The position numbers were made by a program, and so were the translations under genes. Under the pieces are notes generated by a model. It saw nothing but the letters and a program-made list of their open reading frames with translations. It was not told the DNA's origin and made no database searches. Of a stretch of 64,000 nt of DNA, positions 26,168 to 61,239 are shown in pieces. The stretch's first letter is position 1. The number at the start of each line of letters is the position of its first letter. Source of the DNA: Parcubacteria group bacterium. GTDB taxonomy: Bacteria > Patescibacteriota > Minisyncoccia > Moranbacterales > UBA9337. Where the stretch lies: positions 89,017 through 153,016 of the forward strand of contig JBAZSW010000002.1 of the NCBI GenBank assembly GCA_041662245.1, read 5' to 3'.

Positions 26168-26731
26168 ATGAAAATACTAAGAAAAATCGCTCAAGCTTGG
26201 AGACTAATCTTGTTTATCATCGGGGTCATTATCCTCGTGGCTGGACTGCTTTGGGGCATCTTTTGGGGAGTAAATAAACTATTCTTCCACGGCAAACTAG
26301 GCAATAACGGAGAGATTAAAACCTATCAAGTCTTGGTTTCCATCCATGACAATACTATGCCCGATCCCGCCGAAGACAAAAAAACTTCTATTAAAAAAGG
26401 CTATGCTCTCGGACTCTATCCCGAAGACCACCAGTGGTCCGATACCGAAAAAGTCAGCTTTTTAATCTTAAAGATGAAACTCAATGAAACGGAGGCAACC
26501 GATCTGATGGCTCCTGTTGAAAAAGATATCAACATCAAAACCTTGCCTAAAGAAGAACAAGACCGATTGAAAAAGGAAAAAGACGCTCCACCACAAAAAG
26601 AAACCCTCGCCGCCAGAAAGTATAAGATTAATCTAGAAAAAATCAATTTCTCCGACCCCAACTCACTTCTTAAAGGTCAACCGTTTACGGACAAGGTTTT
26701 CGGGTGGGAGATTGTGGAGAAGATAAAATAA
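26168..26731 (+). CDS. Hypothetical membrane-anchored protein (187 aa)
   Basis: N-terminal transmembrane helix LILFIIGVIILVAGLLWGIFWGV. No recognisable domain. Confidence 0.45.
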   Translation: MKILRKIAQAWRLILFIIGVIILVAGLLWGIFWGVNKLFFHGKLGNNGEIKTYQVLVSIHDNTMPDPAEDKKTSIKKGYALGLYPEDHQWSDTEKVSFLILKMKLNETEATDLMAPVEKDINIKTLPKEEQDRLKKEKDAPPQKETLAARKYKINLEKINFSDPNSLLKGQPFTDKVFGWEIVEKIK

Positions 26732-26736
26732 TAATC

Positions 26737-26835
26737 AACACTCAATAACCAATACTCATTCAATATCCGATAAATTAACATTCAATTGAACATTTTGATA
26801 GTGATTATTGAATGAATATTGAGTATTTAATATAA
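26737..26835. repeat. Palindromic AT-rich element, family C
   Basis: Large imperfect inverted repeat (...aatactcattcaata... / ...tattgaatgaatattgagtatt...). Related copies are at 57508-57625, 58845-58950, 60349-60410 and 60790-60850. Confidence 0.65.
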
Positions 26836-27096
26836 CAATGAAGCAGTGGGATTCTGATAATAATTTTTAATTTTTATATTTTTAATTTTTAAATAATGCT
26901 CAAATTTCTAATTTTTAAAAATTAAGAATTCAGATTTATTTATAAAATTACAAAAATTACAAAATTAAAAATTCTATAAACTGTGATTTAGAAGAGAGAT
27001 GCACAAAATTTGTAGAGTCTGCATATTGCAAAATTAAAAAATTCAGATTTATTTACAAAAATTAAAAATTCTAAAAATTACAAAATTAAATTCATA

Positions 27097-30000: not shown

Positions 30001-33000
30001 TCTGGTGCGTCCACTTTGCTGGGCACGACTGATTTATATACTAACAATTATCAGATTAACATCCCGTGCTATTATGACAGTGCCGCCGATACGACTGCCG
30101 TGACAGTTTCTGGTTACACCACGGCGGTGCCCAATTACATCAAAATCTATACGCCGTATAATACGACGACGGAGAGTAATAATTCGCAAAGGCATAGCGG
30201 GAAGTGGGACGCCACGAAATATCGTCTCGTCACAACTTTGGGTAATATTTCTGTCAGTTATGTTAATAATGTGAAAATAGACGGACTGCAATTGGAATCG
30301 CAAGCCACAGTGGCGAGAAGAGTTATTATAATGATTGGCTCTAATATGGCAATTTCCAATAATATTTTGCGATATTCAGGTGCAGCGCCTGTTGAAGCGA
30401 TTTTTTGTAATTCTACCCAAACCAATATTGATGTTTGGAACAATATTGTTTATGGTTTTGCTAATGGCGGTGATGGAATATATATAACAAATAATAATAA
30501 TGGTAGCGCAAGGGTTTATAATAATATTGTATATGGCGGTACATACGGGATTACTACTGGTAATACTGATATTATTGCTAAAAATAATATTTCTTATAAC
30601 AATACTACTTATGATTTCTCTTCCGGCACTTTCCATTCCACCTCCACCAACAATCTTTCTAAAGATGCCACCGCTCCGCCACTCAACACTTATTACACTA
30701 GTAAAACTTTGGCTTTTACTAGCACCACTGCCGGCGCCGAAGATTTTCATTTGGTGGCCGCTGATACGGATGCAATTAACAAAGGGGCGGATCTCTCCGC
30801 CGACACCAATTTGGCTTTTTCCACCGACATCGATTCTCAAACCCGCAATCTACGCAGTGAGGGCTGGGACATCGGCGCCGACGAGGCCGCCACACAAATA
30901 TTTTACAGTGTCGGACAAAACACATCTGACCACAAAACCGGTTCGCCATTGGTCACAGTCAGTGGTACGACGGCGACTTTTGACACCGCCCAAACAGCTA
31001 CCAATATGGGCGTGGGGGATTTGGTCACGTACACGGGTGGCACGTGTTATATCTCCGCTAAAACTTCTACCACCGTTTGGTCCTGTCTTAGTGTGACGGG
31101 TGGCGCGCCGACCGCTGCCACTAATGCAAGTGTTACGAGCATCGCGCATGCCTTTGCATCTCTCGAAGGCGCCGTGGATGCCGACATGGCTACGGGCGCT
31201 TTTGATGCAACGCATTTGAATACTAAAGATTTAGTGGCGGGCAACTATCAGCTCAATGTGCCGTGTTATTATGATAGTGGAGCGGATACTACTGCGGTGG
31301 TGGTGCGATCTTGGACGACGGGAGCGCAGGATTATATTCGGATTTATACACCGGTGAGTACGACCACTGAAGTCAATCAGACGCAGAGGCACAGTGGGAA
31401 GTGGGATAGTGGGAAATATAATATGCTAATCAGCTCTGGTGCGAGCGGGAAAGCCATATATGTTGCTAATCAATATATTCGCATAGATGGATTACAGATA
31501 AAAACAGTCGGTTATGGAGGAATTTGGTCAAATGTTATATACGGTGCTAAAGGTCAAATTATCAGTAATAATATTATTTGGGGAAGTGGAACTTTCACTG
31601 CTGCTGGACAAGGAATTGGTTGGTTTGGTAATGTAGCTAGCGTATCAGCTTACAATAACATCATTTACGGGTTTACTTATGCCGGTTCGTATGGTATTAG
31701 GTTAGACCAATATACTCAAGATAAGACGCCGGTGGTTTATAATAACACTGTTTATGGTTGTGACACGGGAATTTTACAAGACGCCGATGCCTATTATTCC
31801 AACAACATCGCCTACAACAACGGCGTGGATTTTAGCGGTACGTCCAGAGCCGGTTCGACCAACAATCTTTCCAAGGACGGTACGGCAACAGGAACGAACG
31901 CTAAAATAAATCAAACAGTGGCATTTACTTCCACCGCTTCTGGTAGTGAAGATTTTCATCTCGCCTCCACTGATACGGCGGCCAAAAATTCTGGGGCGGA
32001 TTTGTCAGCGGACGCTAATCTACCATTTGCTACCGATATCGACGGCGCTTCGAGAAATGCGAGCATCAATGCTTGGGACATCGGCGCGGATGAAACAGCC
32101 ACGCAGATATTCTACAGCGTCGGTCAAAATACTTCTGATCACAAAACCGGTTCCCCAACGGTCACCGTTAGTGGCACGACCGCCACATTTGACACCGCTC
32201 AAACAGCTACCAATATGGGCGTGGGGGATTTGGTCACTTACACTGGTGGGACTTGTTATATTTCTGCTAAAACTTCTACTAGCGTTTGGTCTTGTGTTAG
32301 TGCAACTGGTGGTACACCAACGGTGGCCAGCGGTGCAAATGTCACGTCCATCGCGCACGCTTTTTCAGCTTTGAGCACAGCCCTTGATGCGGACTCTATT
32401 TCTACTTCAGCCGGTAATTCATCGCATCTCAATACGAATAATCTGGTGACGGGCAATTATCAACTTAATGTGCCCTGCTACTATGATAGTGGTCCGGATG
32501 TCGGGGCGTATGTCCGAAGCTGGACAACAGGTGCACAAAACCATATTAAGATTTACACGCCGGTGAGCACGACAAGTGAAGCTAATCAGACGCAACGGCA
32601 TAGTGGGAAGTGGGACAACACGAAATATTCCATAAACGCCACGGGTCTAGGTCAGAATATAAATTCATGGAATATCGATTTAGTAATCGAGGGTCTTCAG
32701 ATTTACAAATATGCCGCAGATGGTTATACCTCTATAATAACTGTTAACCCAGCTGCATTTTCCAGGATATCTGCCAACATATTCAAGGGTGACAATAACT
32801 TTGGCTCTGCTTATGGAATAAGTGGTGGAAGTGCCAGTTTGAATGTAAATATATACGATAATGTTTTTCAAGATTTTAGATCGCCCTCCAGTTATTTTTG
32901 GACGATAAATCCGGCGGCGGGCAATTGGTATGTCTACAACAACACTTTCTATAATTGTCACATCGCTCTTCGGGGAATCTCTGGCATGGTGGCCAAAAAT

Positions 33001-36000
33001 AATATCGTTCAAAACTGTGTCGATGGGTATGACGGCACATTCAATTCCGCTTCCGACTATAATATTTCCGATCTCGCTTCAGACAACACTGGTGGGGCGC
33101 ATGACAAACAAGCCACCGTGGCTTTCGCTGACACTGCCAACAAAGATTTTCACCTCGCCCCCACTGACACGGCCGCCAAAAATTCCGGCGCGGATTTATC
33201 AGCGGACGCATATCTGCCATTTGCCACCGACATCGACGGCCAGACCAGAAGTGCTACCCCCAGCTGGGACATCGGCGCCGATGAAGCGGCTAATGCTGTC
33301 TACTATTCTGTCGGGCAATCCACGGCGGATTTGAAAACCGGTACGCCCAATGTCGCCATCACCTCGGGCGTGGCTACTTTTGACGTTGCGCAGACTGGGA
33401 ACATCGGGGTTGGGGATGTTATGATCGCTAACGCTATCTCATATTACATATCAAGCAAAACTTCCACCACTGTTTGGAATGTGGTTACCAATACGGGTGC
33501 TACGCCAACTGACATCACGTCCACGGCCGTGACTTCCATCAAGCATGTTTACACTTCACTTAACTCTGCCTCTTCCGGTGCCGGCACACTCCTTGGCACA
33601 ACTGATCTATACACTAACAATTACCAAATCAACATCCCTTGCTATTATGACGGTGCAGCCGACACGACATCTGTGACAGTCTCTGGCTACACCACGGCTG
33701 TGCCCAATTACATCAAGATTTATACGCCATATAATACGACGACCGAGAGTAACAATTCGCAAAGGCATAGCGGGAAGTGGGACGATGCAAAATATCGTTT
33801 AGTATCGGCCAGTCCTACAACCGTCCAACTCAATAGCTCCTATATCATGCTTGAAGGTATTCAACTAAAAAATACCAATACAACATCGGGTGCTGATACC
33901 GCCATAATATATACCAGTTTAAATAACGCTAATTCTTTGTTGACAATCAATAAGAATATTGTTGTGGCTCAAGTGTCCGGAGTTGGCACGATGTATGCTT
34001 TTAAGGATATCTATCAGACGACCAAGAACGCTATATTCAGTAATAATTCTTTTTATAACATAACCGGCGGGACGGCGGAAGATAGAGCTATTATTATGGA
34101 TGGAGGAAACTTTTATATATATAACAACACTATTTATAATGCCGAGGCTGGACTTAAAATAACTTATTCTTCCACGGTTATCGCTAAAAATAATATAGTG
34201 CAAGGCGCTACGGATGGATATTATGGTACTTTTGATTCCTCTTCTGATTACAACATTTCCAATCTATCCAGCGACACGACGGGTGGCGCGCATGACAAAC
34301 AAGCCACGGTGGTTTTTATTTCTACTACGGCCGGCGTTGAAGATTTTCATCTAGCTTTGACTGACACCGCTGCACGAAATTCCGGAGTGGATTTGAGCGC
34401 CGACACCAGTTTCGCTTTCACCACCGACATTGACTCTCAAACCAGAAATCAAAACGCTCTCGGTTGGGACATCGGCGCCGACGAGGCCGCCACACAAATA
34501 TTTTACAGTGTCGGGCAAAACACCACTGACCACAAAACCGGTACGCCGTTGGTCACGGTAGCGGGTACGATGGCGACTTTTGACACCGCCCAAACCGCCA
34601 CCAATATGGGCGTGGGGGATCTGGTCACGTACACGGGTGGCACTTGTTACATTTCGGCTAAAACTTCCTCTACCATTTGGAGTTGTATATCTGCGACGGG
34701 TGGCACGCCAACGGCCGTCATCAACGCGAGCGTCACTTCCATCGCGCATGCCTTTGCATCTCTCGAAGGCGCCGTGGATGCCGGCACTGCTTCGGGGGCG
34801 TTTGATGCGTCGCATCTCAACACCAAAGATATAATGGCGGGCAACTTTCAACTCAACATTCCTTGCTATTATGACAGCGGAGCGGACACTACGGCTGTCA
34901 CCGTGCAATCTTGGACGACGGGAGCACAGAATTATCTTAAGATTTATACGCCCAACAACACGACCAGTGAAGTCAATCAGACCCAAAGACATGCTGGGAA
35001 ATGGGATGATACTAAATATGATCTTAAAATATCAACTAATGCCCACAATATGCAAATTTCAATTAGTTACATTCATATTGATGGATTACAAATATACCAA
35101 TATGCTGATAATTCAGCCAAGGTCAGTTTATATGTCTACTCTCCTAATACAGGCATAGAAATATCAAATAATATTATTCGGGGTAGGGGTAGTTATACAA
35201 CAGGGACACATTTGGGGATAAATATCGCCACTTCTAATAAAATATGGAACAATATTATTTATAATTTTAATGTAACTGGCTCAGTCGGAATCAATTCAAC
35301 GGGCAGTTATACGAATCAATACATATACAATAATACTATCTATAATTGCGCTGTAGGTATTGCTCGATCAAATGCTACGGTAATTCTCAAAAACAACATT
35401 GCCTACAATAATGGAACTGACTATTCTGGCACTTTCGATGCTTCTTCCACCAATAATCTTTCCAAAGATGCTACGGCTCCGCCTCTCAACACTTATTACA
35501 TCAATAAAACATTGGCTTTCACCAATGTTACTTCCGGCGCCGAAGATTTTCATTTGGCCACTACTGATACGGATGCCATCAATAAAGGTGCGGATCTCTC
35601 TGCCGACACCAGTCTATCTTTCACTACCGACATCGACGGTGCGGGTCGAATCGCGGCGGTGAACGCGTGGGACATCGGAGCCGATGAAACCGCCACCCAG
35701 ATTTATCGCTCGGTCGCTCCGAGCGCCACAGCAGTTTTGGAAAGTGATACTTCCCACGCTAGAACTGTGACAATCACCAGTGGAGTGGCCACTTTTAGCA
35801 ATGCTCTCTCTGACACTATTGGAGTCGGGGACGCTGTCCTCATCGATACAGGTGGTACGGATCAAACCATTGATGCTAGTGATACTATATTATTCATCAG
35901 CAGCAGAAATAGTGCTACCAGCTACAACCTACAAACTCATACAGGAGCTACTCCCAGCGACATTACTATCAATGATACATACAGTATTTATCGAGCTTAT

Positions 36001-39000
36001 ACCAGTGTAAGTTTAGCGGAAGCGGGCACCAAAAATACGAGTATCCCGATAACTTTTAACGGAGGCAATCGTGATTTAGTTACCAACAATGAACAGTGGA
36101 ACTTGGCTTGTTATGCTAATGGAGTGACAGCGGATACGACATCAGTAATAATTACTGGTTGGACCACTGCGCAACAGGACTTTATTAAAATTTATACCCC
36201 TGTATCGACAACTGAAGTAGGGACGAGTCAAAGGCACGGGGGGAAGTGGGACAGCGGATTTTTTAGAATGGAGAACATTTCATACAGTCTGTATATATCA
36301 GTTGACAATATTGTCATTGATGGAATTCAATTCTACAATAGTAATAATGTTGGAAACTCGTCAGGCATTTATCTTACTGGTGCGGGAGGGATAGAAAACA
36401 TAACGTTTAGTGGAAATATTTTTAGGGGTTTGGGATCATATAGCGACGGCAATTTACATAGTGGTATTTCTGCTACGGGACTAACTCCGACAGCAGGTTC
36501 AGTAGTTAAAATTTATAATAACATTGTTTATGATTTTTCCGGTTCATCGCTAAGTGGAATAGGCATAAACGCTGTAAAAGGAACTCGAACATATTATATT
36601 TATAACAATACTGTGTATAATATTGTGGGTTATGGAATCAATAATTATAGTGCTGCGGCAGTGGTAGCTAAGAATAATATTGTGCAAAATTGTACCGATG
36701 GATATGTTGGAACTTTTACTAGCTCCGACTACAACATCTCCGACATCGCTGCCGACAACACTGGTGGGGCGCATGACAAACAAGCCACCGTGGCTTTCGC
36801 CGACACTGCCAACAAAGATTTTCACCTCGCTCCCACCGACACCGCCGCCAAAAATTCCGGCGTGGATTTGAGCGCGGATGCTAATTTGCCAATCACCACC
36901 GACATCGACGGCCAGACTAGAATCGCCACTCCCGGTTTTGACATCGGCGCGGATGAAGCGGCTAATGCCGTCTATTATTCCGTCGGCCAATCCACCGCGG
37001 ACTTGAAGACCGGCACACCGAATGTTTCCATTGCCAGCGGTACGGCCACTTTTGATGTGGGGCAAACTGCTAATATCGGGGTTGGGGATGTGATGATCGC
37101 TAACGCCATTTCATATTACATATCAAGCAAAACTTCCACCACCGTTTGGAATGTGGTTACGGTGACAGGCACCACTCCCACCAACATCACTTCCACGGCT
37201 GTCACTTCGATCAAGCACGTCTATTCTTCTTTGAATTCCGCCTCCTCCGGTGCGGGCACACTTCTTGGTACGAGTGATTTGTATACTAACAATTACCAAA
37301 TCAATATCCCATGTTATTATGACAGTGCCGCCGACACGACGGCGGTGACTGTGCAAAATTACACTACCGCTGTGCCCAATTATATTAAAATTTATACGCC
37401 GAATAATACGGTGACGGAGAGTAATAATTCGCAGAGGCATAGCGGGAAATGGGACACGGGGAAGTATAGCCTCTCTAACAGTGCAGTAGCAGATGCTTTA
37501 AGAATTAATAATAACAATGTTGTTATTGCTGGTTTACAGATTAATCAGCAGTATAATGCTGATTATTATGATGCAATCGCAGTGGGAGCTGATAATCGCA
37601 ATGCGATGATCTTGCAAAATATTCTAAAAGATTCTGGTGCGACCAATTCGGGGAACGCCGTTTATGTAGGCAATAGTACCAATACGTCAATTCCGAGTAT
37701 GATTTATATTGTGAATAATGTCGCTTATGGCTGGAAATCAGATGCTATAAATGTTGGTGGCGTTGGAGATAATGGGGCATTTGTGTACAATAATACATTA
37801 TATGGAAACGGCACCTGTGGCATAAATCAAAATAGTTATTATGATGTTGTCGCTAAAAATAATGTTGTAAATTCTAGTGGTACTTATGGTTATTGTACTT
37901 CTCATCTTTCAACGCCTTTAAATTACGCTACCTCTTCCACTAACAATATTTCCTCTGATGCCACCGCTCTGGGATCAAATTCCAAAATCAATGCTACCGT
38001 TAAATTTATTTCTACCACCAGTGGTAGTGAAGATTTACATTTATCTCCCGAAGATAAAATGGCTAGAGATTTCGGAGCAGATTTGAGTGTGGATGCCAAT
38101 TTTGCCTTTAGCACTGACGTTGACGGTTCTGTTCGGACAGTTTCTTGGGATGCAGGAGCCGATGAAACGGCGACACAAATCTTCTACAGTGTCGGACAGA
38201 ACACCACTGATCACAGCATCGGCAGTGGTGGTGCCACTTGTTCTACTACGGGGGCTTGCACCATCACTATTGCCGGTGGCATGGCTACTTTCAATTATGC
38301 CCAAACCGCCACCAATCTCGGAGTGGGTGATAAGGTGACTTACAATACCACGAGTGTGGCTTATATTACCCAAAAAATTTCTCAAACCCAATGGAAATTA
38401 ATGACAGCCACAGGTGGAGTGCCAGCCGACGTCGGCACGGCCCAGACTTTGAATTCCATTACGCATGCCTTTGCCTCATTGGAAGGTGCGGTGGATGCTG
38501 ATAATGCCAATGGTGCCTTTGATTCAACCCATCTCAACACCAAAGATTTGGTGATTGGAAATTACCAACTCAATGTTCCTTGTTATTATGACACAGGCGC
38601 GGATACGATGAATGTAATATTGAGATCTTGGAAGACAAGCACGCAGAATTATATCAAGATGTACACGCCCAATAATACTACTAGCGAAGTCAATCAGTCT
38701 CAGAGACACAACGGTAAATGGGACGCGACGAAATATTCCTTATCCAGTACGGGCCTTGGCTCAAATCTTTATACCGCGGATAATAGTACGGGCAATGGCA
38801 ATGTCATAATTGAGGGCATTCAATTCTACAGATATAGCGCTAGCAATTTTACATCTGTATTATCTCTGCCCTCGACTAAGAATTCATTCAAAAGAATATC
38901 TTCTAATATATTCAAAGGGGAAGTAAATTATTTATCCAGCACTTATGTCATTTCCGGAGGGGTAGCCGGAGCAGATGTTTATATCTATAATAATATTTTT

Positions 39001-39498
39001 CAAGATTTTAAGCCCGCCAGCGGATATGTCTGGGGATTTAATCCGAGTGCTGGCAATTGGTATGTTTACAACAATACTTTTTATAATTGTGACGTGGCGA
39101 TTAGACGCGGGGCATCGAATAATATGTATGTCAAAAACAACATCACCCAAAATTGTACTGACGGATATTATGGAACTTTTGACGCATCTTCCGATTATAA
39201 TATCTCTGACCTCGCTGCTGACACTGCGGGTGGCGTGCACGACAAACAAGCCACTGTGGCTTTTATTGACGCTACCAATAAAGATTTCTGTTTGAAGACA
39301 AGCGATACGGCGGCCAGATATGCAGGAATAAATCTTTCTACTGATAGTTATTTACCTTTTACAAATGACATTCGAGGCAAAGCTCGTCCCAAATCTCCCG
39401 ATGCTTGGAGTATCGGCGCTTGCGAAAATCTCGATTCTACAAAAGTAAAAATGGAAGGCACGCAGATAAAATTGGAAGGAGATGTGAAATTTGAGTAA
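27097..39498 (+). CDS. Giant secreted modular protein (4133 aa): signal peptide, 10 modules, no LamG tail
   Basis: Same signal peptide. Ten modules each end in the DFHL...TDIDG..R...WDIGADE motif. The last ends ...DAWSIGACENLDSTKVKMEGTQIKLEGDVKFE. Confidence 0.85.
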   Translation: MSKFQKLLLILVFTIIGLSSASLASAATQIYRSVASGVTATLATDSSHANTVTVTSGTATFSAALPDNIGVGDAVLIDTGGTDQTIDASDTLLFIHARASSTSYTLKTHTGATPSDISINDTYSIYRAYTSLSNAEAGTKNTNIPITFNGGDRNLVTNDEVWNFACYAAGTTADTAMTTIDSWTTDSTRYMRIYTPVSTTEVGTSQRHSGKWDESKYYISIGNNSAGIYYNIKYLVIDGIQIKVTSSDSSGSVGIQAYNSSIVAGGEITIKNNIVRGQLSGTDPGSAGIATSGYSPNSGVIKIFNNIVYDFARVTGTPQAIFFGAGDHYIYNNTIINCYGGLYKNGGSSAAVAKNNIVKGATDAYYGTFTTGTDYNATDGTDDIGTGSNNKISQTFSFIDETNDDFHLSSTDTAARNSGIDLATDTYSPFATDIDGAGRSATVNAWDIGADETATQIFRSVGPSATAVLESDTSHARTVTLTSGVATFSVALADDIGVGDAVLIDTGGTSNAIDASDTILFISARNSSTSYNLQTHTGAAPSDITINDTYSIYRAYTSLSLAEAGTKNTSIPITFNGGNRDLVTNNEEWNLACYANGVTADTTSVTVAGWTTAQQDFIKIYTPVTTTEVGTSQRHGGKWDMGKYNLTVDSGSWRAITNEVSYMTINGLQISKDCQNNNDSNAVRDQGVGGLVNISNNIIKETSTNSLTASQGVRKHWGSGTVLIWNNIIYGWHGTGNYVSGIVNASASAAYLYGYNNTIYDCNIGIRRDTGTIIAKNNITQNCTDGYSGTFDSSSDYNISDLASDNTGGAHDKQATVAFADTANKDFHLAPTDTQAKNSGADLSADANLPFTTDIDGQTRSATPGWDIGADEAANAVYYSVGQSTADLKTGSPNVAITAGVATFDVAQTGNIGVGDVVVANAISYYISSKTSTTVWNVVTVTGATPTNITSTAVTSIKHVYTSLNSAVSGASTLLGTTDLYTNNYQINIPCYYDSAADTTAVTVSGYTTAVPNYIKIYTPYNTTTESNNSQRHSGKWDATKYRLVTTLGNISVSYVNNVKIDGLQLESQATVARRVIIMIGSNMAISNNILRYSGAAPVEAIFCNSTQTNIDVWNNIVYGFANGGDGIYITNNNNGSARVYNNIVYGGTYGITTGNTDIIAKNNISYNNTTYDFSSGTFHSTSTNNLSKDATAPPLNTYYTSKTLAFTSTTAGAEDFHLVAADTDAINKGADLSADTNLAFSTDIDSQTRNLRSEGWDIGADEAATQIFYSVGQNTSDHKTGSPLVTVSGTTATFDTAQTATNMGVGDLVTYTGGTCYISAKTSTTVWSCLSVTGGAPTAATNASVTSIAHAFASLEGAVDADMATGAFDATHLNTKDLVAGNYQLNVPCYYDSGADTTAVVVRSWTTGAQDYIRIYTPVSTTTEVNQTQRHSGKWDSGKYNMLISSGASGKAIYVANQYIRIDGLQIKTVGYGGIWSNVIYGAKGQIISNNIIWGSGTFTAAGQGIGWFGNVASVSAYNNIIYGFTYAGSYGIRLDQYTQDKTPVVYNNTVYGCDTGILQDADAYYSNNIAYNNGVDFSGTSRAGSTNNLSKDGTATGTNAKINQTVAFTSTASGSEDFHLASTDTAAKNSGADLSADANLPFATDIDGASRNASINAWDIGADETATQIFYSVGQNTSDHKTGSPTVTVSGTTATFDTAQTATNMGVGDLVTYTGGTCYISAKTSTSVWSCVSATGGTPTVASGANVTSIAHAFSALSTALDADSISTSAGNSSHLNTNNLVTGNYQLNVPCYYDSGPDVGAYVRSWTTGAQNHIKIYTPVSTTSEANQTQRHSGKWDNTKYSINATGLGQNINSWNIDLVIEGLQIYKYAADGYTSIITVNPAAFSRISANIFKGDNNFGSAYGISGGSASLNVNIYDNVFQDFRSPSSYFWTINPAAGNWYVYNNTFYNCHIALRGISGMVAKNNIVQNCVDGYDGTFNSASDYNISDLASDNTGGAHDKQATVAFADTANKDFHLAPTDTAAKNSGADLSADAYLPFATDIDGQTRSATPSWDIGADEAANAVYYSVGQSTADLKTGTPNVAITSGVATFDVAQTGNIGVGDVMIANAISYYISSKTSTTVWNVVTNTGATPTDITSTAVTSIKHVYTSLNSASSGAGTLLGTTDLYTNNYQINIPCYYDGAADTTSVTVSGYTTAVPNYIKIYTPYNTTTESNNSQRHSGKWDDAKYRLVSASPTTVQLNSSYIMLEGIQLKNTNTTSGADTAIIYTSLNNANSLLTINKNIVVAQVSGVGTMYAFKDIYQTTKNAIFSNNSFYNITGGTAEDRAIIMDGGNFYIYNNTIYNAEAGLKITYSSTVIAKNNIVQGATDGYYGTFDSSSDYNISNLSSDTTGGAHDKQATVVFISTTAGVEDFHLALTDTAARNSGVDLSADTSFAFTTDIDSQTRNQNALGWDIGADEAATQIFYSVGQNTTDHKTGTPLVTVAGTMATFDTAQTATNMGVGDLVTYTGGTCYISAKTSSTIWSCISATGGTPTAVINASVTSIAHAFASLEGAVDAGTASGAFDASHLNTKDIMAGNFQLNIPCYYDSGADTTAVTVQSWTTGAQNYLKIYTPNNTTSEVNQTQRHAGKWDDTKYDLKISTNAHNMQISISYIHIDGLQIYQYADNSAKVSLYVYSPNTGIEISNNIIRGRGSYTTGTHLGINIATSNKIWNNIIYNFNVTGSVGINSTGSYTNQYIYNNTIYNCAVGIARSNATVILKNNIAYNNGTDYSGTFDASSTNNLSKDATAPPLNTYYINKTLAFTNVTSGAEDFHLATTDTDAINKGADLSADTSLSFTTDIDGAGRIAAVNAWDIGADETATQIYRSVAPSATAVLESDTSHARTVTITSGVATFSNALSDTIGVGDAVLIDTGGTDQTIDASDTILFISSRNSATSYNLQTHTGATPSDITINDTYSIYRAYTSVSLAEAGTKNTSIPITFNGGNRDLVTNNEQWNLACYANGVTADTTSVIITGWTTAQQDFIKIYTPVSTTEVGTSQRHGGKWDSGFFRMENISYSLYISVDNIVIDGIQFYNSNNVGNSSGIYLTGAGGIENITFSGNIFRGLGSYSDGNLHSGISATGLTPTAGSVVKIYNNIVYDFSGSSLSGIGINAVKGTRTYYIYNNTVYNIVGYGINNYSAAAVVAKNNIVQNCTDGYVGTFTSSDYNISDIAADNTGGAHDKQATVAFADTANKDFHLAPTDTAAKNSGVDLSADANLPITTDIDGQTRIATPGFDIGADEAANAVYYSVGQSTADLKTGTPNVSIASGTATFDVGQTANIGVGDVMIANAISYYISSKTSTTVWNVVTVTGTTPTNITSTAVTSIKHVYSSLNSASSGAGTLLGTSDLYTNNYQINIPCYYDSAADTTAVTVQNYTTAVPNYIKIYTPNNTVTESNNSQRHSGKWDTGKYSLSNSAVADALRINNNNVVIAGLQINQQYNADYYDAIAVGADNRNAMILQNILKDSGATNSGNAVYVGNSTNTSIPSMIYIVNNVAYGWKSDAINVGGVGDNGAFVYNNTLYGNGTCGINQNSYYDVVAKNNVVNSSGTYGYCTSHLSTPLNYATSSTNNISSDATALGSNSKINATVKFISTTSGSEDLHLSPEDKMARDFGADLSVDANFAFSTDVDGSVRTVSWDAGADETATQIFYSVGQNTTDHSIGSGGATCSTTGACTITIAGGMATFNYAQTATNLGVGDKVTYNTTSVAYITQKISQTQWKLMTATGGVPADVGTAQTLNSITHAFASLEGAVDADNANGAFDSTHLNTKDLVIGNYQLNVPCYYDTGADTMNVILRSWKTSTQNYIKMYTPNNTTSEVNQSQRHNGKWDATKYSLSSTGLGSNLYTADNSTGNGNVIIEGIQFYRYSASNFTSVLSLPSTKNSFKRISSNIFKGEVNYLSSTYVISGGVAGADVYIYNNIFQDFKPASGYVWGFNPSAGNWYVYNNTFYNCDVAIRRGASNNMYVKNNITQNCTDGYYGTFDASSDYNISDLAADTAGGVHDKQATVAFIDATNKDFCLKTSDTAARYAGINLSTDSYLPFTNDIRGKARPKSPDAWSIGACENLDSTKVKMEGTQIKLEGDVKFE

Positions 39499-56095: not shown

Positions 56096-56235
56096 TAAAA
56101 ATATCAAATGCCAAATTTCAAATTCCCAATAAATGTTTTAATGACTAGATTTTGAATTATTAAATATTATATCTCTAATTTTTGAGTCATTTGAGTTTTT
56201 ATTCGTAAATTAAATTTGTATTAATTTTAAAAATA

Positions 56236-56808
56236 ATGAAATTCAACAAAGAAACTTTTGAAATAATATTTTTTGCCAGAGCTGGTCAAGGCGCTAAAAG
56301 TATTGCCGAATCATTAGCACAGGCAGCGGTAAGTGAGGGAAAATTCGTTCAAGCTTTTTCTTTTTATGGACCGCAACGGAGTGGTGCTCCTACTAAAGCT
56401 TTTGTAAAAATTTCTGCAAGTCCTATTCGCAATCATGAACCCATTATTGATCCTGATGTAGTAGTGGTTTTAGATGATACGTTAGTGACCAGTGAAGATG
56501 TGGGTAAAAACATTACCGAAAATGAATCTGTGATAGTCAACACTAGAAAAACTGAGGAGGAAATTAGAAAGAGTATTAAAGATTTTAAAGGAAACATTAA
56601 AGCTGTGGACGCTAGTGGAATTTCTCTAGATGTAATCGGACAAATTCAGCCCAATGGAGTGATTTTGGGAAAATTAATCGCAATTACCGAAATTGTAAAA
56701 TTGGAAAGTGTCATCAACCAATTTCGAGAAATTTTTGAAAAAAAGATTGGAGCAGAATTGACCCAGAAAAATGTGTTGGCAATTGAGAAAGGATATGATT
56801 CTTTTTAG
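56236..56808 (+). CDS. porG: Pyruvate:ferredoxin oxidoreductase gamma subunit
   Basis: ARAGQGAKSIAESLAQAAVSEGKFVQAFSFYGPQRSGAP. Confidence 0.8.
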   Translation: MKFNKETFEIIFFARAGQGAKSIAESLAQAAVSEGKFVQAFSFYGPQRSGAPTKAFVKISASPIRNHEPIIDPDVVVVLDDTLVTSEDVGKNITENESVIVNTRKTEEEIRKSIKDFKGNIKAVDASGISLDVIGQIQPNGVILGKLIAITEIVKLESVINQFREIFEKKIGAELTQKNVLAIEKGYDSF

Positions 56809-56852
56809 CTTGTAGTGTTTTAGTTTGTAGCTTTTTAGATATAAATCATTTT

Positions 56853-57113
56853 ATGAAAAATAATTTAAATTCATACAGAGATTTAATAGTATGGCAAAAA
56901 GCTATGGAGCTAGTGACAGAAATTTATAAATTAACTGACAAATTTCCAAAAGAAGAAATTTATGGAATTGTATCTCAAATGAGAAGATGTGCAATATCGA
57001 TACCTTCAAATATTGCAGAGGGAAGAAGACGGGATGGAAAAAAAGATTTTAGAAGGTTTTTAATTATCGCTTATGGATCGGGAGCAGAATTAGAAACCCA
57101 AATTGAAATTTAA
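56853..57113 (+). CDS. Four-helix-bundle protein (TIGR02436 / '23S rRNA intervening sequence protein' family), C-terminally short
   Basis: YRDLIVWQKAMELVTEIYKLTDKFPKEEIYGIVSQMRRCAISIPSNIAEG. Confidence 0.65.
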   Translation: MKNNLNSYRDLIVWQKAMELVTEIYKLTDKFPKEEIYGIVSQMRRCAISIPSNIAEGRRRDGKKDFRRFLIIAYGSGAELETQIEI

Positions 57114-57243
57114 AAAAGATTAAAATTTTCAAAAGAAATAGAATTTATTGAAGTTGAGAAAATATTGCTGGAAATTATGAAGATGTTAAACAAATTGGTA
57201 TCGATACTAAAAAGCTAATAACTAAAATCTAAAAAGCTAAAAT

Positions 57244-57504
57244 ATGGAAAAAGGAGCTATCATAAAACATAATATAAAAAATGCCTCTCCGACGGGAAGC
57301 TGGAGAAATTATGCCCCAAGGGTGGATAGTGATAAATGTATTGGATGCAATACCTGTGTTAAATATTGTCCAGATGCGTGTATTGTTTTAAAAAATAGAA
57401 AAGATACAAAGCCGACTAAGCTAGCTGAGATTGATTTAGAATTTTGTAAGGGCTGTGGAGTATGCGCACAAGTTTGTCCAGCAAAGGCAATTGAAATGAA
57501 ATAA
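57244..57504 (+). CDS. porD: Pyruvate:ferredoxin oxidoreductase delta subunit (2x[4Fe-4S])
   Basis: CIGCNTCVKYCP...CKGCGVCAQVCP. Confidence 0.8.
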   Translation: MEKGAIIKHNIKNASPTGSWRNYAPRVDSDKCIGCNTCVKYCPDACIVLKNRKDTKPTKLAEIDLEFCKGCGVCAQVCPAKAIEMK

Positions 57505-57507
57505 ATA

Positions 57508-57625
57508 CCCAATGCTCAATAGACAATACTCATTTAATAATCAATAAATTAATATTCAATTGAATGTTGGATATTAAATATTGAATGAATATTGGATATT
57601 GTTTATTGAATATTAAGAAACAAAA
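57508..57625. repeat. Palindromic element, family C
   Basis: aatactcatttaataatcaataaattaatattcaattgaatgttggatattaaatattgaatgaatattggatattgtttattgaatatt. Confidence 0.7.
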
Positions 57626-57654
57626 TAAGTGATTATCTATTAATATAATTTCAA

Positions 57655-58830
57655 ATGACAAGAAAAATATCCAATCGTAAATATAACGTCGCCTTAACTG
57701 GTGGAGCAGCTTCAGCTGAGGCTCTTCGTCAAATTAATCCTTTAGTAATGCCCGTTTATCCGATTACTCCTCAGACCCCGATAATTGAATCTTTTGCAAA
57801 AATTTGCGCGGATGGAAAAGCAGATACTGAAATTATCACAGTGGAATCGGAGCATAGCGCTATTTCAGCTGCGATTGGTTCGCAAGCAGCTGGCGGACGA
57901 ACAGTAACCGCAACCAGTTCTCAAGGCTTAGCGTTGATGAACGAAATTCTTTATATTGCTAGCGGAATGAGGCTGCCAATTGTAATGTTGATTTCAGCTC
58001 GAGCATTGAGTGCTCCGATAAATATTCATGGAGATCATAGCGATGTAATGGGTGCGCGCGATACAGGCTGGATTCAATTATTTGCTGAAAATGTTCAAGA
58101 GGTTTATGACAATACGATTATTGGAACGAGATTGGCAGAAAAATCTGAACTTCCTATTATGGTGATAATGGATGGTTTTACGACTTCTCATAATGTAGAA
58201 AATTTGGAATTGTTATCAGATGAAACAGTCAAAGAATTTGTCGGAGAATATATAAATGAAAATTCGTTATTGAATGTAGGTAATCCAGTAACTTATGGTC
58301 CTGTAGCGCTTTCTAGTTCATATTTTGATTTTAAAATCGATCAAGAAAAAGCAATGGATAAAGTAGGGGGCAACTGTAAAAAAATAATGAAAGATTTTAA
58401 AAAAATATCTCAAAGAGAATATGATTTAGTTGAGGCCTATGAAATGGAAGATGCAGAGGATGTGGTAATCGTGATGGGGGCGACAGCTGGCACGGCTAAG
58501 GATGCAGTAGATATTTTACGAAAAGCAGGTAAAAAAGTAGGGCTTATAAAAATAAAATTGTTTAGACCTTTCCCTTATGTTGAAGTTGCTAAAGCTTTAA
58601 AAAATGTAAAAAATATAGCCGTTATGGATAGGGCGATTTCTTCTGGTTCAATGCCAGCACTTTACAGTGAAATAAATAATACACTCAGATTTGGAGATTT
58701 GGATAAAGCAAAAGTCAAAAGTTACGTTTACGGTTTAGGCGGAAGAGACATTTTTATTAAAGATATTGAGGGGATTTTCGAGGAATTATTAAATGAGAAA
58801 ATTGTTAAGGGAATTAAGTATATTAAATAG
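57655..58830 (+). CDS. porA: Pyruvate:ferredoxin oxidoreductase alpha subunit
   Basis: NVALTGGAASAEALRQINPLVMPVYPITPQT...; length matches PorA. Confidence 0.8.
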   Translation: MTRKISNRKYNVALTGGAASAEALRQINPLVMPVYPITPQTPIIESFAKICADGKADTEIITVESEHSAISAAIGSQAAGGRTVTATSSQGLALMNEILYIASGMRLPIVMLISARALSAPINIHGDHSDVMGARDTGWIQLFAENVQEVYDNTIIGTRLAEKSELPIMVIMDGFTTSHNVENLELLSDETVKEFVGEYINENSLLNVGNPVTYGPVALSSSYFDFKIDQEKAMDKVGGNCKKIMKDFKKISQREYDLVEAYEMEDAEDVVIVMGATAGTAKDAVDILRKAGKKVGLIKIKLFRPFPYVEVAKALKNVKNIAVMDRAISSGSMPALYSEINNTLRFGDLDKAKVKSYVYGLGGRDIFIKDIEGIFEELLNEKIVKGIKYIK

Positions 58831-58844
58831 AAATATCATATTTT

Positions 58845-58950
58845 AATACTCAATAAACAATGTTCATTAAATAATCAATAAATTAATATTCAATTGAATG
58901 TTGGATATTAAATATTGAATGAATATTGAATATTGTTTATTGAGTATTAA
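58845..58950. repeat. Palindromic element, family C (near-perfect ~100-bp palindrome)
   Basis: aatactcaataaacaatgttcatt...attcaattgaat...attgtttattgagtatt. The termini AATACTCAATAAACAAT / ATTGTTTATTGAGTATT are exact reverse complements. Confidence 0.8.
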
Positions 58951-59026
58951 GTAAAAGACTTTGTTAATGAATGCAGTAAAATAAAACTCAGAAAATTAAA
59001 ATATGAAATAGTTAATAATAAATATT

Positions 59027-59323
59027 ATGGAAATAAAAGAATTATTAGAAAAATCAAAAAGCATTTGGGGTGAAGATAAATTAAATTTATCTCAAATAAT
59101 TGTGAGAACGGGTAAGGTTTTTGGCGACATCTGTCGTTGGGAAAGAAATTCCCAAAAAGATAAAGAAACTCACAATGACTATGAGTTAAAAAAAGAATTA
59201 GGTAACATGATTTTTTGTAATATTCGATGGTGTGATGATTTAGGTTATGATCCACAGGAATGCATCGAGCTAGCAATTAAAGCTCAAGAAAAATTTGTCC
59301 AAGAAAACAATAAAAATAGTTAA
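59027..59323 (+). CDS. Small MazG-like nucleotide pyrophosphohydrolase (putative)
   Basis: 98 aa, all-helical. The motif ELKKELGNMIFCNIRWCDDLGYD resembles the MazG/NTP-PPase EExGD-type motif. Weak call. Confidence 0.35.
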   Translation: MEIKELLEKSKSIWGEDKLNLSQIIVRTGKVFGDICRWERNSQKDKETHNDYELKKELGNMIFCNIRWCDDLGYDPQECIELAIKAQEKFVQENNKNS

Positions 59324-59445
59324 AAATTCAAAGTGCAAAATTCAAAGTTGCAATTAAAAATTAAAAGTTTTTATTTTTAGAATAAATTTTGAACTTTGGA
59401 CTGTAATTTTTAACTTTGCATTTTTAACTTTTAACTTGAATTATT

Positions 59446-60348
59446 ATGAATAATGATTTAATCAAAAACTATGCTTCGGGAGGCGACACTTGTGCCGGTT
59501 GTGGAATTCCTGTGATTGTGAGGAATATTTTAGATGTTGCCACTGATCCGATAGTGATTATCAATGCCACGGGATGTCTGGAGGTCACTTCCACTATTTA
59601 TCCTTATACTGCATGGAAAGTCCCTTATATTCATAACGCTTTTGAAAATGCGGCGGCGACTGCTGCTGGAATAGAAACTGCTTATCAGGCGATGAAAAAA
59701 AGAGGACTGATGGATAAAAAAATAAAGTTTGTTGTTTTCGGCGGAGATGGAGGAACTTTTGATATTGGGTTGCAATCACTTTCGGGGATGCTTGAGCGAG
59801 GACATGATGTGCTTTATGTGGCTTATGATAATGAAGGCTATATGAATACAGGAGGGCAACGTTCAGGAGCTACTCCAATTGGAGCTAGTATGGAAACTAC
59901 TCCTTCGGGAAAAAAATCTTATGGCAATAAAAATTCTCGTAAAAATATGATGCAAATTGTGGCAGGGCACGAAGTGGGTTATCTGGCTCAAGCTAATGTG
60001 GCTTATGTAGAGGATTTGCGAAAAAAAGCTAAGAAAGCTTTGGAAACAGAAGGAGCATCTTTTCTTTTGGTTTTTCAGCCTTGTACCAATGTTTGGAAAT
60101 TTCCCACTTCTGATTATGTGAAAGTGGCGAAATTAGCCACGGAAACTAATTATTGGCCACTTTATGAAATTGAAAATGGGGAACATAAATTAAATTTAAA
60201 AAATGACAATCCTAAAAAAATAGAAGAATATCTAAAAACTCAAAAAAGATTTAAACATCTATTTGCACCAGGGAATGAAGAAGTTTTAAAGAGCATTCAG
60301 GAAAAGGTAAATGGAGAGTGGGAAAGATTGTTAAAAAAAGTTATTTAA
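59446..60348 (+). CDS. porB: Pyruvate:ferredoxin oxidoreductase beta subunit (TPP-binding)
   Basis: CAGCGIPVIVRNIL..., VVFGGDGGTFDIGLQSLSGMLERGHDVLYVAYDNEGYMNTGGQRS. Confidence 0.85.
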   Translation: MNNDLIKNYASGGDTCAGCGIPVIVRNILDVATDPIVIINATGCLEVTSTIYPYTAWKVPYIHNAFENAAATAAGIETAYQAMKKRGLMDKKIKFVVFGGDGGTFDIGLQSLSGMLERGHDVLYVAYDNEGYMNTGGQRSGATPIGASMETTPSGKKSYGNKNSRKNMMQIVAGHEVGYLAQANVAYVEDLRKKAKKALETEGASFLLVFQPCTNVWKFPTSDYVKVAKLATETNYWPLYEIENGEHKLNLKNDNPKKIEEYLKTQKRFKHLFAPGNEEVLKSIQEKVNGEWERLLKKVI

Positions 60349-60424
60349 TATCTAATATCCAATAATCAATATTCATTCAATATTTAATAATCCAATATTC
60401 ATTATTTAATTAAATTTTATTTTT

Positions 60425-60778
60425 ATGAATAATTTTGATCTTGAAGAAAGAACTGCAAAATTTGCAGAAGAAATCATAGAATTGTGTAAAGAGCTAGAAA
60501 TAAATTCATTAAATAGAAGAATAATTGATCAATTAATAGGTTCAAGCGGTTCAATTGGAGCTAACTATTGTGAAGCTTGCGAATCTGAAAGCAAAAAAGA
60601 TTTTAGACACAAAATGGGTATTGCAAAAAAAGAAATAAAAGAAACAAAGCATTGGCTGAGATTATTAGTAAAAGTTCATAATGACAAAAAAGATAAATGC
60701 AGAGTTTTATGGAAGGAAGCTCATGAATTATTGTTGATTTTTTCTAAATCTATAAAGACTAGCAAAAATGGAAAATAG
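60425..60778 (+). CDS. Four-helix-bundle protein (TIGR02436 family), full length
   Basis: Same family as 56853: ...IIDQLIGSSGSIGANYCEACESESKKDFRHKMGIAKKEIKETKHWLRLL. Confidence 0.65.
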   Translation: MNNFDLEERTAKFAEEIIELCKELEINSLNRRIIDQLIGSSGSIGANYCEACESESKKDFRHKMGIAKKEIKETKHWLRLLVKVHNDKKDKCRVLWKEAHELLLIFSKSIKTSKNGK

Positions 60779-60847
60779 TGGTTGGTATCTAATTGAATAT
60801 TAATTTATTGGTTATTGAATGTATATTGTTTATTGGATATTGAACAT

Positions 60848-60868
60848 TAAAAACGAGCCACCTGCTCG
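60848..60868 (-). terminator. Rho-independent terminator for the minus-strand tRNA cluster
   Basis: The minus strand reads CGAGC-AGGTG-GCTCG followed by TTTTT. Confidence 0.5.
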
Positions 60869-61009
60869 CCTCGCTGAAGCTACTGCGAAGCGGGTCGGAA
60901 ACGAACCGACGACCTACACGTTACCTGCCCGAAATGCTTTGAGCCGTCTATCGGGATTGAACCGATGACCTACGCGTTACGAGTGCGTCGCTCCGCCTGC
61001 CTACGCCTG
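60856..61009 (-). other. Two degenerate tRNA 3'-half-like segments downstream of tRNA-Thr (anticodon-loop-like CTCGTAA, T arms ATCGG-TTCAATC-CCGAT and GTCGG-TTCGTTT-CCGAC). Neither has a matching 5' acceptor strand
   Basis: The minus-strand segments align to the 3' half of the tRNA-Thr (GAGCGACGCACTCGTAACGCGTAGGTCATCGGTTCAATCCCGATAGACGGC and ...GTAACGTGTAGGTCGTCGGTTCGTTTCCGACCCGCTTCG). No sequence complementary to AGACGGC or CCGCTTC is found 5' of them. Confidence 0.5.
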
Positions 61010-61082
61010 AGCCTACAATCGGACTTGAACCGATAACCTACGGTTTACGATACCGTTGCTCTACCAATTGAGCTATGTAGGC
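61010..61082 (-). tRNA. tRNA-Thr (anticodon CGU), no encoded CCA
   Basis: The minus strand reads GCCTACATAGCTCAATTGGTAGAGCAACGGTATCGTAAACCGTAGGTTATCGGTTCAAGTCCGATTGTAGGCT. Acceptor stem is GCCTACA / TGTAGGC, D arm GCTC..GAGC, anticodon stem ACGGT / ACCGT with loop ATCGTAA, T arm ATCGG-TTCAAGT-CCGAT. Confidence 0.8.
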
Positions 61083-61084
61083 TT

Positions 61085-61125
61085 AGGCGATGGCGGGCAG
61101 GTCTACCAACTGAGCTAAGGTGGCA
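61085..61125 (-). other. tRNA 5'-fragment-like sequence (GCCACCTTAGCTCAGTTGGTAGAC) truncated after the D arm and followed by CCTGCCCGCC
   Basis: Acceptor-like GCCACCT plus D arm GCTCAGTTGGTAGA, then no anticodon arm or T arm. Confidence 0.4.
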
Positions 61126-61239
61126 CTAATACAAATATCATTGTAATACAATTAGCAATAAATTTCAAATAAACTCTTTGACATTTATTTTTTTGTGGTA
61201 TAATAAAATTGATAAATTAAAACTTTAAAAAATAAAAAA

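Follow-up and report, generated by a model that had tools for sequence, protein, structure and literature searches.

The 64-kb window analysed here (W; the whole stretch of DNA, from a Parcubacteria group bacterium of the Moranbacterales) has a GC content of 38% and carries its long open reading frames (ORFs), three of them giant, exclusively on the plus strand. Towards its end lies an operon for a pyruvate/2-oxoacid:ferredoxin oxidoreductase (por), whose spacers are occupied by inverted arrays of short repeat units and by small genes, two of which encode four-helix-bundle proteins (4HB; PF05635; Table 1). The first of these, 4HB1, belongs to the classical subfamily and the second, 4HB2, to a subfamily rich in members from the candidate phyla radiation (CPR). 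The PorCDAB set of four subunits is complete and every subunit is full length based on Pfam and NCBIfam profiles, with all equivalog scores below their cut-offs. For comparison, 72 genome loci were recovered (L-numbers denote the loci of relatives), ~50 of which are Moranbacteria por loci at 61–85% PorA identity. On the basis of its PorA relatives, W belongs to Candidatus Moranbacteria/Moraniibacteriota (Parcubacteria, CPR). The original prediction, that por genes are normally contiguous and that in W small genes and palindromes lie between porG, porD, porA and porB, was confirmed at the coordinates given, by these profiles, by repeat scans and by the por loci of relatives. Most relatives at ~60–68% PorA identity have gaps of ~5–100 nt between the por genes, and the operon in W has therefore been expanded; its small genes and palindromes, whose presence varies among relatives, are additions to an ancestrally compact operon, as had been proposed.

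Table 1. Features of the por operon and of one related element elsewhere in the window (positions within the window).
Feature	Position	Strand	Evidence or description
porG/porC, gamma subunit of pyruvate/2-oxoacid:ferredoxin oxidoreductase	56236..56808	+	PF01558 3.9e-31; TIGR02175 5.5e-48
Left arm of 4HB1 cassette	56803..56838		36-nt inverted repeat, 81% complementary to 57207-57242
4HB1, classical PF05635/TIGR02436 gene, interrupted	56853..57215	+	PF05635 9e-34; TIGR02436 3.1e-31
Right arm of 4HB1 cassette	57207..57242		units CTAAAAAG CTAATAA CTAAAAT CTAAAAAG CTAAAA
porD, delta (2x[4Fe-4S] ferredoxin-like) subunit	57244..57504	+	TIGR02179 2.8e-25
ORF-less C element	57504..57625		(CAATANN)n left, (NNTATTG)n right; hairpin ~45 bp; minimum free energy (MFE) -29.7 kcal/mol, z=-5.7
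porA, alpha subunit	57655..58830	+	PF01855 (POR_N) 1.8e-71; PF17147 (PFOR_II) 2.8e-29; PorA_Arch 7.8e-135
ORF-less C element, best-preserved copy	58838..58956		MFE -43.5 kcal/mol, z=-11.6
orf98, conserved small CPR protein, 98 aa, predicted four-helix MazG-like fold	59027..59323	+	weak profile and predicted-structure matches
Third-family palindrome (TTAAAAG-type units), orf98-porB spacer	59309..59445		62-nt arms, 73% complementary; z=-3.3
porB, beta (thiamine pyrophosphate-binding) subunit	59446..60348	+	NF008819 1.7e-107
Left arm of 4HB2 cassette = left half of C element	60344..60404		CAATA-type units only: AATATCT AATATCC AATAATC AATATTC ...
4HB2, full-length four-helix-bundle protein, CPR-rich PF05635 subfamily	60425..60778	+	TIGR02436 9.6e-25; PF05635 9.7e-18
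Right arm of 4HB2 cassette = right half of C element	60791..60853		TATTG-type units only
Decayed ORF-less C element, between 187-aa gene (26168-26731) and 4133-aa gene	26729..26842		nhmmer E=6e-23; z=-1.5

Downstream of porB, the 4HB2 gene sits in the loop of a single long hairpin, whose arms (60344–60401 and 60794–60851) are 81% complementary over 58 nt. The segments at 60349–60410 and 60790–60850 had been described as separate C elements (the name used here for CAATANN arrays without an ORF), but are instead the two arms of this one hairpin. The left arm begins at the porB stop codon and is conserved in L002, L006 and L008, while the right arm ends at the 3′ end of a tRNA-like shell on the minus strand; whole-element folds, both MFE and centroid, close the arm–arm stem in W and in the same three relatives (z = −4.1 in W). 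The prediction of a full four-helix-bundle gene held, as a hidden Markov model search returned a complete TIGR02436 protein (Table 1), part of a subfamily that is very large in the CPR (at least 7987 homologues). Compared to orthologues in L002, L006 and L008, 4HB2 has a dN/dS of 0.05–0.07 versus 0.05–0.06 for porB, at dS values of 0.6–1.2 (six pairs) and 1.0–1.4 (three pairs), respectively. On the PorA tree, ((W,L002),(L006,(L007,(L005,(L003,L004))))) is joined by (L008,L009), then by L010, L011 and L012; 4HB2 follows porB in W, L002, L006 and L008, is absent from L004, L007 and L009, and is replaced at the same position in L005 by C arms around a DUF559 gene and GC-rich mini-palindromes. Across these loci 4HB2 is under strong purifying selection, and the comparison points to an old and functional gene, vertically inherited with several losses. 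Conservation of the same insertions in relatives, named at the outset as evidence against mobility, thus extends to 4HB2 in four loci and is only partial for the operon as a whole. Separately, the dS of 4HB2 in the W–L002 and W–L006 pairs (0.61–0.64) is roughly half that of the adjacent porB (1.00–1.16), possibly due to constraint of RNA structure on synonymous sites, codon bias, or cassette exchange within the clade.

The 4HB1 gene in the porG–porD spacer is enclosed in the same manner by arms of a different kind. The left arm begins inside the final porG codons and consists of tandem 7–8-nt units ending in TAG (TTTTAG CTTGTAG TGTTTTAG TTTGTAG CTTTTTAG), and the right arm covers the final three codons of the 4HB1 frame and stops 1 nt short of the porD ATG. 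The long-range stem between them closes in both the MFE and centroid folds (z = −3.5), and the two arms belong to a sequence family unrelated to the C-type arms. The ORF at 56853–57113 aligns to the TIGR02436/PF05635 profile up to position 78 of 106 and is ended by an in-frame TAA (57111–57113), where the intact L007 orthologue at the same site (74% identity) has a TCG serine codon. Past this stop the frame is undisturbed to a TAA at 57213–57215, and the truncation noted in the original prediction is therefore a premature stop, a recent nonsense change, rather than a deletion. The part of the frame ahead of the stop has a dN/dS of 0.10, compared to 0.18 for the part beyond. The spacer holds the gene in W and L007; in L008 it holds 4HB1-type arms around a 35-nt loop with no ORF, and in L005 probably arms only, with a gap (NN) at the critical point. 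Runs of N in public metagenome-assembled genomes (MAGs) coincide with palindromic por spacers at several positions (L003, 8032–8093 and 8942–9150; L008, 2324–2422; L005, ~5536 and 8630). Hairpin arrays break or collapse short-read assemblies, and presence and absence calls at such sites therefore need care.

Other spacers hold palindromes without an ORF. The two C elements that flank porA are 93% identical over 110 nt (57511–57620 in the first), and a homologue of the porD–porA element occurs in the same spacer of L002 and L008. The third-family palindrome upstream of porB has a related element in the porA–porB spacer of L006. A decayed C element lies outside the operon, adjacent to the gene for the 4133-aa giant protein. 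In L161–L166, the gene P0129 (82% identical to 4HB2) is located between a 66%-identical 187-aa gene and a homologous giant gene, and the shared flanking genes therefore place the decayed C element at the orthologous site of an ORF-bearing cassette. The census of C-type sequences counts four copies in 64 kb (71–93% identical), while nearly all spacers of the window ≥100 nt contain lag-7 arrays with self-complementarity (lag-7 scores, 0.68–0.82); the palindromes are genome-wide and not por-specific. GAATTTN units make up the commonest palindrome family of the window, which is similar to the arms that flank the 4HB gene of L036. An Rfam scan of the window at gathering thresholds returned one tRNA only and no RNA family for any hairpin. 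Promoter and terminator consensus sites are no commoner in the window than in shuffled sequence (24 vs 24.6 and 3 vs 2.7, respectively), and the terminator scan did not call the hairpins intrinsic terminators. Heptamer-array palindromes also crowd the long spacers before each of the three giant ORFs (5008–12540, 16365–25925 and 27097–39498; 2510, 3186 and 4133 aa), which have 41–48% GC compared to ~30–34% elsewhere in the window.

The pairing of 4HB genes with inverted arrays extends across the Moranbacteria. A scan of ~650 kb from this group yielded nine 4HB genes, flanked by inverted repeats in all eight scorable cases (scores, 15.5–30.5; 653 control ORFs, p95 = 13, p99 = 18) and in all nine by eye (L005 being judged by eye), with arms from five different sequence families. 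In addition to the positions in W, 4HB genes of other lineages occur in the porD–porA spacer of L032 and the orf98–porB spacer of L005. Across genomes, different 4HB lineages occupy four different por spacers, and the operon therefore repeatedly acquires and tolerates such insertions. The porA–porB spacer of other relatives contains sigma-factor, BrnT/BrnA, MazG, DUF559, radical-SAM and coiled-coil genes, and the por operon is a long-standing site of gain, loss and replacement.

Using a metagenomic sample scanned with an alignment of the classical subfamily, and hence composed of 4HB1-type genes only, it was possible to explore the same pairing in 80 loci of 30–64% GC, 70 of them scorable. The control p95 was reached by 50 of the 70. 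A repeat period of 7 or 8 nt scored best for 55 of the 70 flanks upstream of the gene and for 58 of the 70 downstream of it, with a flat distribution for 194 control flanks. Among the consensus units, 32 of 42 on the upstream side include YAG and 32 of 37 on the downstream side include CTR, and the unit is therefore (YAGNNNN)n on the left and (NNNNCTR)n on the right, with the four N positions varying between elements. A YRR trinucleotide (YAG, CAA or YGA) is kept, while the other four positions of the unit drift in step on both arms. No rRNA was detected in any of the 80 loci (blastn against Escherichia coli rrs and rrl; Rfam on 20 loci). The neighbours are mostly co-oriented with the 4HB gene (upstream, 49 of 57; downstream, 41 of 57; median gaps, 55–59 nt) and are ordinary genes of multi-gene operons, including rml/epimerase, MacB/FtsX, PrgI, cytochrome b and sdh/frd. 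Individual examples include the 4HB gene of the Nostoc punctiforme plasmid pNPUN01, flanked by (CAGGAGT)n and (ACTCCTG)n, and that of Riemerella anatipestifer, flanked by (CAAGGTT)n and (AACCTTG)n. Plasmid-borne 4HB genes are concentrated in heterocystous cyanobacteria, the group in which short tandemly repeated repetitive (STRR) sequences have been described.

For the 4HB2 subfamily, contexts outside por were taken from three look-ups, which placed such genes in unrelated surroundings: between the 187-aa gene and the giant gene, between nifU and a nifS-like gene in Falkowbacteria, and in a PrgI/TraC-like (type IV secretion system [T4SS]) cluster. In all three, CAAT-type arms take up the spacer, beginning at the upstream stop and reaching the downstream ATG. 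Units of the YAGNNNN type accompany the classical subfamily and units of the CAAYNNN type the 4HB2 subfamily, and W alone holds one YAG-type and one CAAT-type cassette. The unit type therefore goes with the protein subfamily and not with the locus or host: 4HB2-type genes in por, nifU–nifS, T4SS and giant-gene contexts of different CPR lineages all have CAAT-type arms. Neither 4HB1, 4HB2 nor orf98 matched a defence system in PADLOC.

The palindromes and the 4HB genes had been taken for separate insertions; they instead form a single type of element, in which inverted arrays of heptamers may or may not enclose an ORF. The account of the por spacers that we favour, at a confidence only slightly above even, is that they hold a single element family of inverted 7–8-nt unit arrays, with a loop that either carries a PF05635 gene or is empty, comparable to the intervening sequences (IVSs) of 23S rRNA but residing in an mRNA operon. 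The arrays would extend over the whole intergenic spacer, starting at the stop codon upstream and ending at the start codon downstream, and their arms would pair in the polycistronic por transcript as a stem of 35–55 bp. By analogy with the Coxiella IVS, RNase III may cut this stem, which would free the 4HB message and separate the por cistrons, each with its own start codon, such that an insertion would be nearly neutral for the operon. The 4HB protein itself would be a working protein that the host maintains; it probably binds nucleic acid made up of its own heptamer repeats, and this would account for the match between unit type and protein subfamily. Over time, elements would be lost, lose their ORF, or be replaced by other array families. 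The elements of the por operon are best read as old, vertically inherited and subject to turnover, rather than as recent hops of miniature transposable elements with inverted repeats (MITEs).

Several observations weigh against this account. Both co-transcription of the por genes and RNase III cleavage of the stems are steps that we infer. A remnant of a 4HB ORF was sought in the 35-nt loop of L008 and no convincing homology was found, which bears on the polarity of gain and loss. On their right sides, L002 and L161 have extra left-type arrays and a full palindrome, such that one stem with one ORF is not a universal arrangement. Double changes occur in 5 of 24 pairs of the C stem, though with a covariation term of ~0 that is confounded by register slippage of the tandem units. 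Approximately a quarter of the metagenomic 4HB genes lack a clear flanking repeat, and protein identity correlates significantly, though only slightly, with unit sequence (rho = −0.17). Finally, the protein of the Coxiella IVS is probably not made, according to its authors (PMC4990558), in contrast to the constraint on 4HB2.

That the hairpins are instead regulatory or structural RNA or DNA elements of the host (REP-like stabilisers, attenuators or processing sites) needed by each spacer, with the 4HB genes as passengers that survive only in loops, is the best-surviving alternative, though an unlikely one. It accommodates the near-ubiquity of lag-7 arrays and self-complementary stretches in the longer spacers (≥100 nt) of the window as well as the common occurrence of nested loop insertions, such as GC-rich mini-palindromes and the DUF559 gene inside the L005 C arms, and the hairpins of another sequence family in orthologous spacers suggest that structure rather than sequence is kept. 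Passive passengers would not be predicted to show a unit type that goes with the 4HB subfamily wherever it occurs, in loci and lineages of no relation to each other. In high-GC organisms without genome-wide hairpins, 4HB genes still keep their own arrays. The compact por operons of relatives work without hairpins, and the terminator-like sites of the window are at the frequency of shuffled sequence.

Less probable again is the explanation in the original prediction, in which the C elements would be transposons of a MITE-like kind, with the small genes as independent mobile insertions, the result of repeated recent hops into the operon. Repeated acquisition and tolerance stand, with four spacers occupied, while the MITE hallmarks and recent hopping do not. 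Palindromes of ~110 nt with several copies in the window, two of them 93% identical, and a presence that varies among relatives, with different repeat families filling spacers in different genomes, are all features that a MITE would share. However, the arms are heptamer arrays throughout instead of terminal repeats around a unique core, there are only four copies in 64 kb, and the same elements occur at the same sites in genomes of 75–85% PorA identity. Target-site duplications were not seen by eye at the boundaries of the paralogue alignment (ATACCC/AAACAA, ATTTT/TAAAAG and TAATC/TATAAC), a weak negative as the boundaries are fuzzy in AT-rich arrays. The operon contains no transposase, and none is included in the 25 most frequent families, out of 125, from 105 genes neighbouring 4HB genes. 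Further, 4HB2 evolves like a host gene and orf98 is a core CPR gene. Some MITE and REP (repetitive extragenic palindromic)-type repeats are substrates of RNase III or RNase E, and IS1397 inserts into the loops of REPs. Like the Correia/nemis, ERIC, REP/BIME and RPE repeats, the elements in W are palindromes of ~100 nt in intra-operon spacers and would be co-transcribed; unlike them, they have tandem-heptamer arms, a low copy number and a full-length form that carries a 4HB gene rather than a transposase, with neither target-site duplication, cognate transposase nor REP-associated tyrosine transposase (RAYT) seen. Integrons came into consideration solely on account of their attC sites, which are hairpins; the 25 most frequent families of 4HB neighbours include no tyrosine recombinase, and core genes lie between the hairpins of the por operon.

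A role of the 4HB proteins with the host operons (e.g., in the biogenesis of iron–sulfur enzymes), as recruited members instead of selfish or neutral cassettes, is very improbable: eight of the nine Moranbacteria 4HB genes (four of five independent positions) are inside por operons, iron–sulfur-related neighbours occur in L167–L172 and L160 (nifU–nifS in Falkowbacteria; an iron–sulfur assembly accessory gene in Riemerella), and 4HB2 is under strong purifying selection, but the sampling was por-centred, the neighbours of 70 other 4HB genes lack a common theme, other 4HB2-type genes reside in T4SS and giant-gene contexts, and the por operons of many relatives have no 4HB gene, leaving the functional link unsupported by the neighbour census.

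The favoured account, IVS-type cassettes in an mRNA operon, rests in part on similarity to known systems. The 23S rRNA IVSs of Leptospira and Coxiella burnetii (with S23p, a PF05635 ORF) likewise have a PF05635 ORF inside a long stem of terminal repeats, tandem heptamers in the arm (GACAGAT in Coxiella), a strongly transcribed operon as their site and shorter versions without an ORF. In Coxiella, the terminal repeats form a 28-bp stem, in which RNase III cleaves at the first heptamer of the GACAGAT tandem (PMC4990558), and 23S_rRNA_IVP ORFs occur in rRNA insertions of the CPR (10.1101/2024.02.27.582315). The elements in W differ in that they occupy spacers of a protein-coding operon, not helix 25 or 45 of 23S rRNA, and in that 4HB2 is strongly constrained in the clade of W, whereas the Coxiella ORF was judged dispensable. 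The heptamer arrays of other bacteria (GGGAATC pairs in Xanthomonas, STRR/GGGGAYT in cyanobacteria and TAACTGA in Beggiatoaceae) are also tandem 7-nt units that are intergenic and transcribed, often as two convergent arrays able to form a stem-loop (PMC4692102; PMC4679880). The elements in W have this form of convergent tandem 7-nt arrays in an intergenic spacer (lag of 7–8 in both flanks, with CAATANN/NNTATTG as the C unit), though their arrays are AT-rich (CAATANN, GAATTTN, TAGCTTT) and tied to a gene family. Those two papers treat the repeats as G-quadruplex or translational signals without a link to PF05635, and a term search of the text of the Xanthomonas study (PMC4692102) returned neither 'S23' nor 'intervening'. 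No publication linking PF05635 genes in general to inverted heptamer arrays was found in an incomplete search, and a prior description is possible. The Avd protein of diversity-generating retroelements has a homologous four-helix-bundle fold (weak matches to PF22296 and NF033474; PMC10053308), but the score against the Avd model NF033474 is far below threshold (23.1 bits vs a cut-off of 80). No reverse transcriptase or template/variable repeat is nearby; all ORFs from 53.4 to 62.9 kb are accounted for without a reverse transcriptase.

The third small gene, orf98, was also described as a mobile insertion and as MazG-like. The first description does not apply, as the gene belongs to a highly conserved family found across the CPR (886 homologues, 65–85% identity) in unrelated contexts, elsewhere adjoining NUDIX, HIT, Ham1 and HD genes. 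The second is backed by several weak matches that agree, with no significant family match: PF12643 (E = 0.05), a PDB profile match to MazG (E = 0.03), and a confident AlphaFold2 model (pLDDT, 91) for which the top three and most of the top 30 Foldseek hits are all-alpha NTP pyrophosphohydrolases of the MazG type (TM up to 0.65 and probability up to 1.0, at E-values of only 0.07–0.3). In an alignment judged by eye, helix 2 reads VRxGKxFGD, not the EExGE of the EExxE...ExxD metal motif, and the conserved acidic residues are D34, E39, E57 and D70/D71. In W as well as in L003, L004, L005 and the outgroup L011, the gene occupies the porA–porB spacer. Based on sequence and predicted structure, orf98 appears to be a relocated, conserved housekeeping gene with a predicted MazG fold that entered the porA–porB spacer in an ancestor.

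Several further features of the operon and its surroundings were observed. No Shine-Dalgarno-like motif precedes any gene of the por operon (regions upstream of starts, 56100–60430), which therefore raises the question of whether translation starts by non-Shine-Dalgarno or leaderless initiation; the start codons are 1–35 nt from the ends of hairpin arms, and TATAAT-like boxes occur 5–7 nt before the porA ATG. Genes with DUF559 (a Vsr-like endonuclease domain) recur beside or inside Moranbacteria por operons (L005, 9550–9927; L004, 5956–6300; L038, 8480–8839; L047, 9632–9991). Small GC-rich palindrome families (CTCGCCTCGCTGAAGC..GCGAAGCGGG, CTGCCTGCCGGCAGGCAG, CCCCTCCTCCCCTT..GGGGAGG and GTCTTTGCGAGGAGG..CGACGTGGCAATC) are present within AT-rich hairpin loops, surrounding DUF559 genes and in tRNA-like sequences (L002, 8880–8980; L004, 4880–4930, 5790–5950 and 6300–6360; L005, 9500–9560 and 9940–10030; L007, 7185–7340; window, 60862–60891). 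They have the look of very small mobile repeats of a class of their own, with hairpin loops as targets. The PorA of L061 (6001–7295; a Moraniibacteriota MAG) is 81% identical to that of W over residues 5–143 but only 43% over residues 133–390, possibly as a recombinant or chimeric gene or a chimeric assembly.

Downstream of por, a region compared in L002 and L004–L009, the minus strand of W carries nested tRNA genes (60855–61135), of which only a tRNA-Thr(CGT) at 61009–61082 is called. GC-rich inverted repeats flank the called gene, and around them lie the 5′ and 3′ parts of a second tRNA-Thr(CGT), of which L004 and L006 have an intact version. Within this shell are also the 3′ two-thirds of a third copy (whole in L002, L005 and L008) and, in the T-arm region, a GC-rich hairpin of 30 nt. 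The fold of the 285 nt closes the outer acceptor stem (z = −5.5). Nesting is common to W, L007 and L009, and L002 has a whole tRNA in the outer anticodon loop. The nest may be a pseudogene landing pad or may be excised at the RNA level.

The function and origin of the 23S IVSs and their S23p/four-helix-bundle ORFs have been open since ~1990, as have those of bacterial heptamer repeats. W and ~100 related loci suggest that these two puzzles are one: the ORF and its inverted heptamer arrays travel together, mostly in ordinary operons and not in rRNA, and the constraint on the 4HB protein can equal that on an enzyme of core metabolism. In its broadest form, which is put forward tentatively and with the balance of probability against it, PF05635 genes with subfamily-specific inverted 7-nt arrays would constitute one widespread and unrecognised class of intra-operon element, of which the 23S IVS would be a special case that landed in rRNA, and the CPR hairpins, Xanthomonas GGGAATC pairs and cyanobacterial STRRs would be ORF-less derivatives, with the pentameric protein recognising its own unit and helping to maintain or spread the arrays. 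For annotation, the palindromes in CPR spacers and the assembly breaks that result from them become recognisable as a defined element class. The elements also bear on how streamlined CPR genomes, with very little spare DNA, organise and process their polycistronic transcripts.

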